Shown: positions 51,223 to 55,495 of the stretch, piece by piece
Position numbering within the stretch: position 1 is the stretch's first letter
Layout of the letters: every line of letters begins with the position of its first letter
NCBI GenBank assembly: GCA_034439575.1
Contig: JAWXAQ010000016.1
Coordinates: forward strand, 224,001 to 288,000
Origin: Leptospira sp.
Lineage (GTDB): Bacteria; Spirochaetota; Leptospiria; Leptospirales; Leptospiraceae
Reading direction: 5' to 3'
DNA: 64,000 nt
Made by a program: the position numbers and the translations under genes
The notes under the pieces: model-generated
What the model was told of the DNA's origin: nothing
The model's database searches: none
What the model saw: only the letters and a program-made list of their open reading frames with translations

Positions 51223-51289
51223 TGTCGGACATCCGACATACCAAAAATTAGAAAAAAGTATCTGTTGGATTTGTGTCGGACATCCGACA
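51223..51289. promoter_or_regulatory. Two identical 16-bp palindromes; parS candidates
   Basis: TGTCGGA-CA-TCCGACA at 51223-51238 and 51274-51289, upstream of parA. Confidence 0.65.
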
Positions 51290-51341
51290 TTCAAAACGGT
51301 ACGTACTTGACAAAGTGATTAAATTTAAACAGTTTCATAGC

Positions 51342-52667
51342 ATGCCATTCTCTGGCAAGTCAGCCATTTATTCTGCTGAAACAGGTAAGTCTTGGATAGA
51401 AAAAATCCTTCCCTTGGCCTGGGAAGAGTTATGTACAAGCATGGGAATCCTGGCGGGAGTCGTTGTCCTCAAGTCGTTTGAAGATGACTCTTTTATGGAG
51501 AGTGCTTCTTTCGGGTATGGTGAAGACGGATTTTATTATCCATTTTTGGCAAGAGGCGAATCCGAACTCGAAGAGGTAAAGTTGAGTTTAGGTCCAGTGA
51601 TGTTCTCTGGTGAAACGCACTCTTTGTTTTCGGAAGATGCTAATGCCTATGTGATGGGAATCCGATGTGAAAACCCATTAGAATTTTCAGGTTTCATACT
51701 TGCCGAGTTTCCAAAAAAAGATCAAAATTTTAGCCAACTCCTTTACCTTTTCGCTGAGAAAATAGCCAAAGAAATCGAATCTATTCATATTCAAAAAAAA
51801 TATATAAGCGAGCAGGCGATCACTCCGACGCCCCAAGAATCTCCATTTATAATCCATTTCATTTCAGGATTAAATCAAAAAATTGAGGCTTTAAAAAAAG
51901 AAGGGTATGTAAGTATTTTTGGTAAAAAAGGAACAGGAAAACGCACCCTTGCCAAGTGGATCCATAGCCAGACTCGACCTCATTCGCCTTGTTTATTTAT
52001 TAGTTCTATTCCCGATCATTTAGGAAAATTGGAAAAAGCAATCTCTCATTGGTCAGAAGAAATTGGCCGAGGAACCTTGGTGTTTTCAGGGCCCAAAAAA
52101 TGGAGTCTCGGGCAACAGAAAATCCTTTTGGATTGGGTTTCCACAAAGCTAGAATGCCAAATTTTATTCTTGGATGGTTTGGAGGAAGCAGAAGAATTGT
52201 TGCCAGCTTTCGGAAAGCACTTGCGCAAAAATAGCATCCAAGTTTCCGAATTATCCTTTTTTAATAAAACTGACATTCAAGAAATCGCGACTCGCATGTT
52301 TCAAGATTTGGCCCGTGAGCAAAATAGAAGTGGTCTTAGTTTAGATGCAAAAGCTTTAGATAGCATATGTGAACAAGATTTTCCAGGAAATTTTACTGAT
52401 TTGAAAAACCTTTTACTCTCTGGAATTTTGAAATGCAAAAGCAATATTGTCACCGAAACCGATCTTGATTTTAGTGATTCCCACCTTAATTTAGGCGTTC
52501 CCGATTCGGAAGATTTAGACTTGCGGAGAGGGATTCAGGCACTAGAAAGGCAGAAGATTCTAAATGCAAAACGGATATTCTCCGGCAACCAAATTCGAAT
52601 GGCAAAGGCTTTAGGAATCTCTCGCGGGGCTTTACAAAATAAAATGAAACAACTAGGCTTACTTTAA
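51342..52667 (+). CDS. Degenerate sigma-54-activator-like (AAA + Fis HTH) regulator
   Basis: GKKGTGKRTLAKWIH, FPGNFTDLKN, GNQIRMAKALGISRGALQNKMK; no GAFTGA. Confidence 0.8.
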   Translation: MPFSGKSAIYSAETGKSWIEKILPLAWEELCTSMGILAGVVVLKSFEDDSFMESASFGYGEDGFYYPFLARGESELEEVKLSLGPVMFSGETHSLFSEDANAYVMGIRCENPLEFSGFILAEFPKKDQNFSQLLYLFAEKIAKEIESIHIQKKYISEQAITPTPQESPFIIHFISGLNQKIEALKKEGYVSIFGKKGTGKRTLAKWIHSQTRPHSPCLFISSIPDHLGKLEKAISHWSEEIGRGTLVFSGPKKWSLGQQKILLDWVSTKLECQILFLDGLEEAEELLPAFGKHLRKNSIQVSELSFFNKTDIQEIATRMFQDLAREQNRSGLSLDAKALDSICEQDFPGNFTDLKNLLLSGILKCKSNIVTETDLDFSDSHLNLGVPDSEDLDLRRGIQALERQKILNAKRIFSGNQIRMAKALGISRGALQNKMKQLGLL

Positions 52668-52672
52668 TCTTT

Positions 52673-53677
52673 ATGGAAGAAACGGTTTACGAAGAGAGAA
52701 AAACTCCGGGTGGGTTTCTTGTAAAAGTGAGACTGTCAAAAATGACCTATGTCGTTTTTACAGAATCTGGGCCAGAAGTACCCAAAGGTGCCAAAAATAA
52801 TTCCATTGTATCCGTAGTTCCCAAAGTAGGTTTTTTTGGAACAGATTTTGATCTTTCTCATTTTCATTTGGGCGAATTATCTTTTGTAAACGTGAAAGCT
52901 GGTAAAATGGTGATCCCTTACCAACACGGATTTTCAAATGAAATCAAAACTATCTATCTGGGAACAGGTAGCCAAAGCGACGCGCTCCCTGTCGTCATTC
53001 AACATTTCAAAACCAAAGAAGCCTTGATGCAGGCCTGGGAGAAGGGAGAACAAGTTCAGTATCTAGTTGTAGATGAAGAGATACCAAGATCCGATATGGT
53101 GACTTTCAAAATCAGATACCCGAGCCTTAATATCTTAGTAATTAAGAAACGAATCAATACTTCTGCTGAATCGCAAGCGGCTAAACCAATCGGGAATAGT
53201 GACTCTGACAAAGGTATCGTGGACTATGATAAAGTCCGAGCCACGGATGTTGCCAAAAATGCAAATTTAAATATGTATAGCGAGAACCCAGTTTTTTTAG
53301 CTAGGATCCACCTTCGGAATGTTGAATTAGACAAGGTAAAACAATTGCTCTTGGACTTCAAATTGAGTGCGGAAGATGTTACATTTATCCGTACTTTTTT
53401 GGAAGTCATGATCAAAAATGAATACCAAAAACCAGAGCTTGAAAAATTAAAACCGCAATTGATCGCATTAAATGAAGCCTTTCGACTTTCCGTTTTAATT
53501 CTAGAATTTGGCATCGAAGCTTTCGAGAAAGAATTAGAAAAAGGATTCTCCTCGGAAATTTCTAGCATGATTTATGCGATGTTAGCTAAAGAACAAGAAG
53601 CCGCGACAGAAACTGAAAAAGAAATCGTGCTTTGGGAATGGAAACTAAGAACTCGAGAAATGATGTATGGCCGCTAA
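52673..53677 (+). CDS. Hypothetical protein
   Basis: 334-aa ORF directly after the regulator. Confidence 0.8.
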   Translation: MEETVYEERKTPGGFLVKVRLSKMTYVVFTESGPEVPKGAKNNSIVSVVPKVGFFGTDFDLSHFHLGELSFVNVKAGKMVIPYQHGFSNEIKTIYLGTGSQSDALPVVIQHFKTKEALMQAWEKGEQVQYLVVDEEIPRSDMVTFKIRYPSLNILVIKKRINTSAESQAAKPIGNSDSDKGIVDYDKVRATDVAKNANLNMYSENPVFLARIHLRNVELDKVKQLLLDFKLSAEDVTFIRTFLEVMIKNEYQKPELEKLKPQLIALNEAFRLSVLILEFGIEAFEKELEKGFSSEISSMIYAMLAKEQEAATETEKEIVLWEWKLRTREMMYGR

Positions 53678-53774
53678 TTTTTCCTCAAAATAGGTAAAAA
53701 AAGCTATCTTTTTAGGCAAAAACCTTCAAAATTGAGGAAAGTTGCTATGAAAATGCTCCAAACTTCACTAAAAT

Positions 53775-53790
53775 TGGCACGAAACTTGCT
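53775..53790 (+). promoter_or_regulatory. Sigma-54 (-24/-12) promoter
   Basis: TGGCACG-AAAC-TTGCT, exact match to TGGCACG-N4-TTGCW; predicted +1 near 53801. Confidence 0.75.
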
Positions 53791-53800
53791 GACCCAATTG

Positions 53801-54220
53801 GGCTTTGCTGGGCTAGTGTTTCTATTTTGTGGGAGTTCTATTTTTGCTAATGTTTCAGAAAAACCTATCATTATCCCTGCTGATCCCCTCCTAACTCCTG
53901 TTCAGTTAGTGAATGGTATCATTTCAGAAGTGACTGTCCCTTCAACTTCCATTGCAGTTATCGCACACGCTGACTTTTTCCCATCCAGTAAAATAACTGG
54001 GACAAAAGGGAACGGCAAAGTTAAATCTATTCGTTTAACGCATGAGACCTATTTTTCAAATTCCATTCGTTTAGAAAGCCCAGCAAGTGTGGATGATCTG
54101 AGAAATGAAAATGCTCCTTTTGGTTTTTTAGCCAAAAGGAGTATTTTTAAAATAAAATCTGACTTACGACAATCTGTGTTAAAATCGATTGCCAAGACAG
54201 GTCTTTTTGCTTTTTTTGAA
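53801..54220 (+). ncRNA. Putative structured leader/ncRNA
   Basis: 53805-53814 pairs with 54077-54086; 17-bp hairpin 54108-54147 with G-U pairs; further local stems; U-rich end. Confidence 0.45.
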
Positions 54221-54222
54221 AT

Positions 54223-54606
54223 ATGTCTCAGCCAAAGCGAGTTGCCTTCCAAAAATTTATCAATGCGATGCGAAAACTCTCAGTGGAAGTCAATGACACA
54301 GAGATCTGCAAACGCTTGGAAATCCTCATGGCCACTAGCAAAGATGACCTACCTATTGCCCAAGTCAATTTGCTCCTTGCTGACCCGAAAAGCTTCGACC
54401 CACGTGCCATCGCAGAGCCGTTTACGCAGTATGTCCGACACTTTATCTATATGGTCAAACGAAGTGGTAAGCTCCCAGCAGACCTCGCCGGCGATTCCTC
54501 AGCCACAACTGGAAGCAATCGCGGCCAAGATACAGCTAAATCCAAAAAGCTAGTTTCCGCCAAAAAGACCAATCCTCGCCCAAAAAAATCTCTCAAAACC
54601 AAATAA
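54223..54606 (+). CDS. Hypothetical protein with Lys-rich C-terminal tail
   Basis: 127-aa ATG ORF with protein-like helical N-domain. Confidence 0.7.
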   Translation: MSQPKRVAFQKFINAMRKLSVEVNDTEICKRLEILMATSKDDLPIAQVNLLLADPKSFDPRAIAEPFTQYVRHFIYMVKRSGKLPADLAGDSSATTGSNRGQDTAKSKKLVSAKKTNPRPKKSLKTK

Positions 54607-54609
54607 GGT

Positions 54610-55495
54610 ACTCCGACCTAGTTTTTACCTGCATCCAACAGCGCCCTATGCCTAGCACAGAAGCAAATAAGCAAAATCTATAGTTTTGTGTCTAAAGCAC
54701 ACAAAAGAAAGAAGATCGAATTCGATCTAAATAATTGCTTAGTTTTGGTCAATTATCTGCCAAAATCATGACTCGGTTGGATCTCCGTCTCGCTGTCTCG
54801 AATTCTTTGCCTGAATCTGGGCATATATGAATAATAATAAAAAACGGAATTTAAATGCCTAAGGAACAAGGCCAGAATTGGTCATTTGGATATCTGGCGA
54901 AGGGCAGTCACTAAAGAGAGGCCTATGCCGATTTTTCGGCCGCCGTTTTATCGCCAGATCATAGTTTTGTTCCTTCGATTGGGCATTTAGATTTTGAGCT
55001 TTTGGGTCTTTTTCAAAGTGGATTGGCTAAAGGAGCGAATCAAATTCAGATCATTCTTTTTTAGTGAATGCAGAAAGGAAGGTACATATTATTGCGATAA
55101 ATGTCAAAAAATCGGCAGTTAGCGCTCCTTCCTAATGAGAAAAATTCTCTGAATGTCTGATACTATGCCAGAAGCCAAAAGAGAGGAATTCCTTTCTGGC
55201 AAATCGCCATGATTCCATATATAAAGAAAAATGGTCAAAAATATGCTTCTGATTGGGACAGAATGTCGACATCCCTCAAATTTGAGTGGAATGAATGTAA
55301 ATGTCAAAAAATCGGCAACAGTGGGTTGATAATGGACGGGTTCCGCTGCATTTACGGGAGAATCCTGTATATCGGGGGATATTCGATCCAAAACATGACA
55401 AATTGACATGTGTATGCAATAGACAGAAGCATGAATATTTGTCAGGGATGAATAGTGCTTTACTTGGGCCGGCCACAGGCAGTAATCTCGCCCAA
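54610..55495 (+). ncRNA. Putative large structured non-coding RNA
   Basis: Many nested stems with + strand G-U pairs; no credible ORF over ~880 bp. Confidence 0.5.

Follow-up and report, generated by a model that had tools for sequence, protein, structure and literature searches.

Sigma-54 promoters that lie inside genes have been described in Escherichia coli, where they are found in the sense orientation, with the next gene hundreds of nucleotides (nt) downstream, and are conserved at positions that the host protein does not require (PMC4591121, in the part of the paper that was available). In Leptospira, the accessible literature names sigma-54 promoters of LIC12503, LIC11935, and amtB in L. 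interrogans (Zhukova et al. 2017, PMC5243855; reviewed in PMC12655853) and of LEPBI_I1011 in L. biflexa (PMC12655853). As far as the available text of these sources goes, the published promoters lie upstream of genes at primary transcription start sites (TSSs), and their targets include predicted exported proteins. The present work concerns a 64,000-nt stretch of DNA from Leptospira sp. (GCA_034439575.1, contig JAWXAQ010000016.1, positions 224,001 to 288,000), referred to below as the window. On its + strand, a -24/-12 sigma-54 promoter that is close to certain to be genuine is located at 53775 to 53790, within an open reading frame (ORF), ORF A, that runs on over the following gene, gene B. 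The interpretation that we favor, and consider reasonably probable, is that of an intragenic promoter in the 5' end of a real gene, A, whose transcript serves gene B through a leader of ∼420 nt.

All of the features listed above for the E. coli sites recur at this locus. Unlike that class, the promoter occupies a fixed spot in the codons of a putative signal peptide, 9 codons after the start, and is kept genus-wide, and its host ORF continues out of frame over the next gene with its stop codons purged, which is known here from sequence. It shares the consensus form of the published Leptospira promoters, e.g., TGGCACGCTGCTTGCA for LMANv2_200027 (PMC5243855, available in part), and differs from them in being internal to a gene and in lying on the small replicon. 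It is not among the three promoters named for L. interrogans in the available sources; a mention in the primary regulon papers is possible. A literature search pairing L. biflexa chromosome II gene identifiers with sigma-54 returned nothing relevant.

Same-strand overprinting of genes is familiar from viruses and phages but has rarely been well supported in bacteria. As in overprinted pairs, two frames of one strand are open here for more than 300 nt, gene B is under strong purifying selection, and the tail of A is young, unconstrained in sequence, and predicted to be disordered. Unlike in such pairs, frame A shows stop avoidance alone, and the overlap is long in one genus only. An intragenic sigma-54 promoter is a known kind of element, but we did not find a description of the present architecture, in which a site fixed just after a start codon, in putative signal-peptide codons, feeds into an ORF kept open over the next gene.

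A conserved sigma-54 promoter in putative signal-peptide codons

The initial annotation of the window, made from the sequence without database searches, had placed an exact sigma-54 motif inside the ORF at 53732 to 54553, downstream of both TTG 53732 and ATG 53747. This was confirmed. The element TGGCACGAAACTTGCT (53775 to 53790, + strand) matches TGGCAC-N5-TTGCW exactly, with GG and GC ten bases apart. It is embedded in codons 10 to 15 of ORF A, at the boundary between the n- and h-regions of the putative signal peptide, and the predicted +1 falls near 53801. No other match was found in the 64-kb window, even with one mismatch allowed. Shuffled versions of the window contained a mean of 0.23 matches, with at least one match in 20/100, so that a lone match is by itself not significant. 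The 4.1-Mb genome carries four perfect sites, compared with two for a reversed control pattern. As a separate observation, two of the perfect sites lie in the sense orientation within other ORFs of this genome (C16:121170-121185 and C30:227717-227732), one of them near the 5' end of a 545-amino-acid frame and the other ∼110 nt before the next gene.

Conservation was followed in 40 loci, one per genome, drawn from 41 genomes (the "genus genomes"); one genome, G055, was left out as its assembly is broken at the locus. Counts for these were kept apart from those for other named Leptospira species and for 20 genomes outside the genus. In all 40 genus genomes, a perfect TGGCAC-N5-TTGCW occupied the corresponding codons of ORF A, as it had in an earlier set (30/30). 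In three of them (G004, G022, and G024), the promoter and an open frame A were found although a protein search with A had given no match. The codon supplying the TG was always NTG (TTG in 20, CTG in 14, ATG in 4, and GTG in 2), encoding Leu, Met, or Val. The Ala codon within the motif was GCA in 40/40, compared with 25% of Ala codons in the neighboring gene, and the Leu codon supplying the TTG was TTG in 40/40, against a background of 23%. The codon that follows always began with C, encoding Gln, Leu, or His, while the five spacer bases and the flanks of the motif varied freely. Because the consensus bases, wobble positions included, are invariant while the amino acids at codons 0, 2, 3, and 5 vary, selection is seen at the nucleotide level, and the alignments indicate that the constraint on the motif is on nucleotides, not amino acids.

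The motif extends across the named species. Within the saprophyte group, 15/15 named loci had it in perfect form, among them those of L. ognonensis, L. idonii, L. vanthielii, and L. yanagawae, and so did 14/16 named Leptospira species from outside that group; the remaining two, L. borgpetersenii and L. alexanderi, have a single mismatch and read TGGCGC. In L. interrogans, a perfect motif is located 995 nt upstream of the LB361 homologue, LB361 being the family to which gene B belongs. When 53680 to 54620 was compared with relatives by blastn, only query positions 488 to 815 (∼54167 to 54494) were found, the rest being too diverged. The genome encodes sigma-54 itself (rpoN; PF04552 match, 211 bits) together with three proteins with strong Sigma54_activat (PF00158) matches of 255.6, 241.5, and 122.6 bits, the domain of enhancer-binding proteins (EBPs). 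The promoter proposed in the initial annotation is, on these comparisons, close to certain to be a genuine, genus-conserved sigma-54 (-24/-12) promoter.

ORF A as a protein-coding gene

ORF A extends from 53747 to 54553 on the + strand and encodes 268 amino acids of a fast-evolving, probably secreted protein listed as "hypothetical protein" in public sources; the frame itself is open from TTG 53732. Its ATG (53747 to 53749) is preceded by a GAGGA Shine-Dalgarno sequence (53734 to 53738), and one of the 4-mers AGGA, GGAG, or GAGG was found 5 to 18 nt upstream of this ATG in 21/40 genus genomes. In all 40 genus genomes and in 16/16 named species from outside the saprophyte group, the promoter's NTG follows an ATG by exactly 9 codons. 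This places the start codon 28 nt upstream of TGGCAC, a spacing that was fixed in every Leptospira examined.

The N-terminus (53747 to 53848) aligns as M-x-F...K, a hydrophobic run, and LFA followed by N/D-E, and is signal-peptide-like in pattern. A conserved motif follows at P40 to V64 (53864 to 53938). In 23 relatives with the same promoter-to-B length, codons 24 to 56 showed clear coding periodicity, with entropy near zero at second positions and 1 to 1.8 bits at third positions. From codon 57 to codon 120, the alignment was near saturation at all three codon positions. The ratio of nonsynonymous to synonymous substitution rates (dN/dS) was ∼0.05 to 0.15 in the N-terminal domain and 0.23 to 0.96 in the hypervariable stretch (∼53945 to 54178).

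Across 30 species, the hypervariable part contained no stop in 2,251 codons of frame A, compared with 83 and 139 stops in the other two frames. The distance from the promoter to gene B took 14 distinct values among the genus genomes, between 343 and 535 nt, all of which were 1 mod 3; a spacing of 439 nt was shared by 28/40. Hence the length and frame of this stretch are, by these counts, constrained, and its sequence is not. The same stretch (53945 to 54178, codons ∼67 to 144) was also observed to have the same length in 23/30 relatives, with no stop in any. AlphaFold2 returned a low-confidence model of ORF A with a helix at residues 2 to 27 and a beta-hairpin at 52 to 61; from residue 71 on, every 10-residue block had an average predicted local distance difference test score (pLDDT) of 42 to 53.

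The initial annotation had offered a real long ORF as its alternative, and it is this alternative that the data support. Given the codon periodicity, the stop avoidance, the frame-preserving indels, the conserved start, and a Shine-Dalgarno 4-mer in about half of the genus genomes, ORF A is close to certain, as judged from comparative sequence, to be a real protein gene with a signal-peptide-like N-terminus.

The frame of A over gene B

In the window, ORF A runs 331 nt into gene B, in the +1 frame of B, and its overprinted tail occupies 54223 to 54553; the range in the genus is 325 to 409 nt. Over the first 100 codons of B, the +1 frame contained no stop in 40/40 genus genomes, compared with 5 to 13 stops in each of 20/20 genomes outside the genus. 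When B was resampled synonymously with the codon usage of the upstream gene U, ∼3.9 stops in frame A were expected, and the chance of finding none was ∼0.008 per genome. The same null fitted the +1 frame of U, used as a control: 18.2 stops were predicted and 19.8 observed, and the longest stretch without a stop measured 29 to 95 codons.

The openness of the frame was not accompanied by conservation of the encoded peptide. Entropies for codons 1 to 100 of B were 0.30, 0.20, and 0.94 bits at the first, second, and third positions, indicating strong purifying selection on B, and the most variable of these, the third, is the second codon position of frame A. No purifying selection on the amino acids of frame A over B was detected, and the tail is predicted to be disordered. 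Judging from these alignments, the overlap frame has been purged of stops in the genus while its amino acid sequence is otherwise unconstrained, and from codon 57 to the end of A the sole detectable selection is against stops and frameshifts. Since stop avoidance is all that is seen in frame A, the selected trait may be the transit of ribosomes rather than a protein domain.

The long overlap is confined to the genus. Among the 20 loci from outside it, A ends 6 to 93 nt before B in two large lineages and overlaps B by 36 to 114 nt in two smaller ones; in other named species examined, A ends up to 195 nt before B. One large non-saprophyte lineage was seen to carry a conserved 9-bp hairpin between the A stop and the B start, ∼12 to 40 nt before the ATG of the LB361 homologue, consisting of TTTTCAGCC, a loop of 3 to 4 nt, and GGCTGAAAA or GGTTGAAAA. 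A programmed -1 frameshift from A into B at the T-run before ATG 54223 was considered and rejected: in the window, the -1 frame contains a TGA at 54217 to 54219, and a slippery heptamer is lacking at the T-run in the main clade.

RNA structure downstream of the promoter

The initial annotation had read the DNA behind the promoter as a structured noncoding RNA or regulatory leader, and the pairings on which it drew are visible in the sequence. The long-range closing stem on the + strand, TTGCTGGGCT at 53805 to 53814 and AGCCCAGCAA at 54077 to 54086, is 10 nt long and 100% complementary, but it is at chance level, since 23/200 dinucleotide shuffles of 53801 to 54222 also contained perfect inverted repeats of 10 nt or more. 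The inner stems CTAACT/AGTTAG, CCAGT/ACTGG, and TGTCCC/GGGACA can be picked out by eye. The hairpin within ORF A (54108 to 54147, + strand; arms 54108 to 54123 and 54132 to 54147, with a U-rich 3' side) extends to 20 pairs with a folding energy of -26.3 kcal/mol, and TATTTTTAAAAT comes next. It is single-copy in the genome, which rules it out as a repeated element. The fold of 53801 to 54222 as a whole had an energy of -105.2 kcal/mol (z = -2.71), and none of 100 shuffles was as stable.

The interpretation of these pairings as a structured RNA was not supported by the comparative data. A search against Rfam gave no match at gathering thresholds in the whole window; the best score was 23.7 bits, where the gathering score is 90. 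RNAalifold applied to the whole leader in the 23 relatives predicted 19 pairs in 422 columns, none of them compensatory, and the DNA spanned by the closing stem (53805 to 54086) was not alignable among relatives. The 54108 to 54147 hairpin was missing at that position in 29/29 relatives, in which the best hairpin lay elsewhere and was usually weaker (-12.7 to -25.5 kcal/mol). Metagenome contigs 95 to 99% identical to the window carried five uncompensated substitutions that break 4/20 hairpin pairs and change its energy from -26.3 to -8.4 kcal/mol, with frame A still open. Two of the observations that the initial annotation had named as refuting its structured RNA, conservation of the codon type and a lack of covariation, were thus made, and the leader is, so far as these alignments reveal, constrained as coding sequence and not as a fold.

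Gene B and its start region

Gene B (54223 to 54606, + strand) encodes a 127-amino-acid protein of the LB361 family with a small helical domain and a Lys/Ser-rich tail. It matched NCBIfam NF047546, "phosphatidylinositol phospholipase," at 6.3e-58 and 194.7 bits over residues 1 to 125 of 127, above the curated cut-off of 184, and has the same length as LB361. The family name depends on one paper, in the available part of which LB361 of L. interrogans ("L-PI-PLC") was described as a 384-bp gene whose product has a kcat of 8.6e-5 per second and for which no polymerase chain reaction (PCR) product was obtained from L. biflexa (Zhao et al. 2013, PMC3790881). Compared with that negative PCR result, a homologue was found here in 114/114 Leptospiraceae genomes, saprophytes included.

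The AlphaFold2 model of B had a mean pLDDT of 74.7 and consisted of helices at residues 7 to 19, 23 to 38, 45 to 53, and 68 to 81, forming an 85-residue bundle followed by a disordered basic tail; the catalytic barrel of phospholipase C was not seen in this predicted fold. A Foldseek search of the model against the PDB gave no match at E ≤ 0.001, the best E being 2.8, with no phospholipase among the matches listed. No Pfam domain was found in B, and a search of the ESM Atlas gave no usable match. The enzyme name therefore seems doubtful as a description of function, to judge from the predicted fold, and should be treated with caution.

The start of B coincides with an ultraconserved nucleotide block at 54180 to 54280 on the + strand (∼-45 to +55 relative to B), with entropy near zero in the 23 relatives. 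It is almost invariant at all three codon positions, including in the 45 nt upstream of B, where only frame A codes, and it lies within the sole part of the locus that blastn could find. Covariation gave no support for a structure in the block, with 1/20 pairs around the B start being compensatory. The invariant TAAAAT and TTGCCA within it were each considered as part of a sigma-70 promoter, and no partner hexamer was found at a usable spacing.

Gene neighborhood

The window carries four consecutive + strand ORFs, an EBP-like gene, U, A, and B, of which A and B overlap in different frames. The EBP-like regulator gene (51273 to 52667, + strand) encodes a degenerate protein with an AAA lid and a Fis-type helix-turn-helix (HTH), matching AAA_lid_14 (3e-8), HTH_8 (2e-5), and Sigma54_activ_2 (2e-5) in Pfam. 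Its Sigma54_activat score of 14.2 bits was under the cut-off, and it is not among the PF00158 matches of the genome. A long ORF at its position precedes U in at least three outgroup loci, an observation of position and not of homology. Gene U (52673 to 53677, + strand), directly upstream of A, encodes a conserved 334-amino-acid protein with no family in Pfam or NCBIfam and a dN/dS of ∼0.01 among relatives.

At all loci examined, U kept its place upstream of B, and where a genus has no gene A, the two genes are immediate neighbors. In seven genomes of other Leptospiraceae genera, neither gene A nor the motif was present, and U was followed directly by B. The trio of a regulator lacking GAFTGA, U, and an LB361-family gene also appeared to be syntenic across Leptospiraceae, including genera that lack A. 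With the EBP-like gene as its first member, the EBP-like/U/B trio looks like a conserved functional module, judged by gene order.

In the spacer between U and A, an alignment of 30 relatives revealed a conserved block made up of an A-run, GC, and a T-rich part (53696 to 53713, + strand). It lies ∼60 to 80 nt upstream of the -24 element and is among the few conserved blocks upstream of the promoter; it contains no recognizable activator site, and by its position it may be where an activator binds or the DNA bends. The homologous locus of Leptospira sp. "Mane" is on chromosome 2, the small replicon. Downstream of B, the ∼880 nt from 54610 to 55490 contain no long ORF on the + strand, a doubtful 194-amino-acid ORF on the - strand, and no Rfam match.

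Proposed role of the promoter

The firing of the promoter and its start point, the choice of B as target, the activator used, and the reason why the overlap stays open are points that we infer. In the arrangement that we favor, transcription from ∼53801 would depend on an activator and yield an mRNA for B whose leader is ∼420 nt long. This transcript would be unable to encode A, as the start codon of A lies upstream of +1, and B would be its most likely target, since the first conserved start codon on it is that of B. The same DNA would encode A on a longer transcript that comes from upstream, either reading through from U or starting at a promoter in the spacer. No terminator was scored on the + strand between 53400 and 55800, making read-through plausible.

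Public sequence runs gave limited information on transcripts. Five runs matched the locus, each with ≤0.20 of the sampled words, and the contigs assembled from four of them provide no starts, strand, or level. One RNA-library contig extends across the promoter (53768 to 53974), a weak hint given that contigs show no ends and that DNA carry-over is possible. The assembled contigs of these four metagenome runs, three of which may be DNA, cover 53751 to 54642 and not 53303 to 53704.

Several observations weigh against a promoter dedicated to B. In the accessible, truncated TSS tables for L. interrogans (PMC5243855; internal starts, with 80 nt upstream), none of four forms of the motif, that of L. 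interrogans included, was found, although a control string was recovered and confirmed that upstream sequences are present in these tables; the identifiers LB359 to LB362 were not found in the TSS supplements of the same paper, as available. The untranslated leader would be 413 to 509 nt long in the genus and ∼0.9 to 1.2 kb in other Leptospira, and transcription could end prematurely within so long an untranslated stretch. As the initial annotation had pointed out, ATG 54223 comes after a T-rich tract and has no obvious Shine-Dalgarno sequence, and AGGA, GGAG, or GAGG was found 5 to 18 nt before this ATG in 0/40 genus genomes. To judge from its position, the ultraconserved block may hold initiation signals or a promoter belonging to B itself, and with a promoter there B would not need the distal sigma-54 promoter. 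In the lineages g13 and g14 (4/4 genomes), TGGCAC is kept and the GC of the -12 element is degenerate, so that part of the conservation of the motif may serve another purpose. The other three perfect sites in the genome are all inside ORFs and may be due to chance. The EBP-like gene has no GAFTGA-like motif, and no cognate activator was therefore identified.

It is also conceivable, although we would not expect it, that promoter, A, and B together form a two-transcript switch working through ribosome traffic. On the long mRNA, ribosomes starting at the ATG of A would pass through the hypervariable stretch and then cross the start of B and its whole folded domain, silencing B or protecting the RNA. 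On the short sigma-54 mRNA, the start of A would be missing, the RNA would be free of ribosomes, and the start of B would be accessible. A promoter fixed just after the start of A would in this way make one stretch of DNA either coding sequence or leader. Such a switch would explain why selection from codon 57 on is against stops and frameshifts alone.

Alternative explanations

Holoenzyme containing sigma-54 is inactive when it binds to promoters (PMC4591121, available part). If it were held at this site mainly as a stable closed complex, it could be a roadblock, or a switch set by occupancy, for transcription that enters A and B from the upstream operon, with no productive mRNA for B. The invariant 28-nt spacing from the start of A, which a promoter solely for B would not need, and the lack of a start at the motif in the accessible L. 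interrogans tables fit this idea. However, intragenic sigma-54 binding in E. coli was without effect on the expression of the overlapping genes, according to the available part of PMC4591121, and here the -24 and -12 elements are both perfect, as expected of a site that must open and fire; we regard a roadblock as unlikely. The promoter could instead serve A, if the sigma-54 transcript were translated in frame A from a noncanonical or leaderless start, giving an isoform without the n-region of the signal peptide. The frame is open from the promoter onward in 40/40 genomes, TTG is found at codon 10 in 16 of the 23 relatives and at codon 12 in 17 of them, and the distance of 0.9 to 1.2 kb to B in other Leptospira suits A better than B. 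Those codons, however, can also encode Cys, Phe, Ser, or Ala, so that no start after +1 is conserved, and a ribosome-binding site would not fit in. In the window, frame A has its first Met downstream of +1 within the overlap with B, and an invariant ATG, with a Shine-Dalgarno 4-mer in 21/40, lies upstream of the promoter. An isoform of A is accordingly given little credence.

Fixed spacing to the ATG also suits a motif kept for reasons unrelated to sigma-54, such as an L-A-Q/R-x-L peptide, an mRNA element near the start, or a site for another DNA-binding protein, and the persistence of TGGCAC in g13 and g14 despite the loss of the -12 GC would be in line with this. But the invariant bases are exactly those of the sigma-54 consensus, wobble positions included, while the amino acids, the N5 spacer, and the flanks vary, which makes such a purpose very improbable. 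The idea that the ∼420 nt after +1 are a structured noncoding RNA or leader, or that 54108 to 54147 and its U-tract form a species-specific attenuator ahead of B, appears more improbable still. In its favor are the z score of -2.71 and the 20-pair hairpin followed by UAUUUUU, which was scored as terminator-like and listed on the - strand. The absence of an Rfam match, the 0/19 compensatory pairs, the chance level of the closing stem, and the loss of the hairpin from 29/29 relatives, with uncompensated breaks even in contigs 95 to 99% identical, all count against it; every coding test favored translation, and the conserved form of such an RNA is already contradicted.

Implications

The promoter would join the few described in Leptospira for sigma-54, with conservation that reaches from saprophytes to L. 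interrogans, and it adjoins a gene of the LB361 family, which has been reported as a virulence factor. Being internal to a gene, it would be missed by searches limited to the regions upstream of primary starts. The locus also provides a clean bacterial case of a long same-strand overlap, in which a clade-specific and statistically clear purge of stops has taken place without amino acid constraint, and it raises the testable question of whether the passage of ribosomes, instead of their protein product, can be what selection acts on. Finally, a family named "phosphatidylinositol phospholipase" proves to be universal in Leptospiraceae and, in its predicted fold, unlike a phospholipase.

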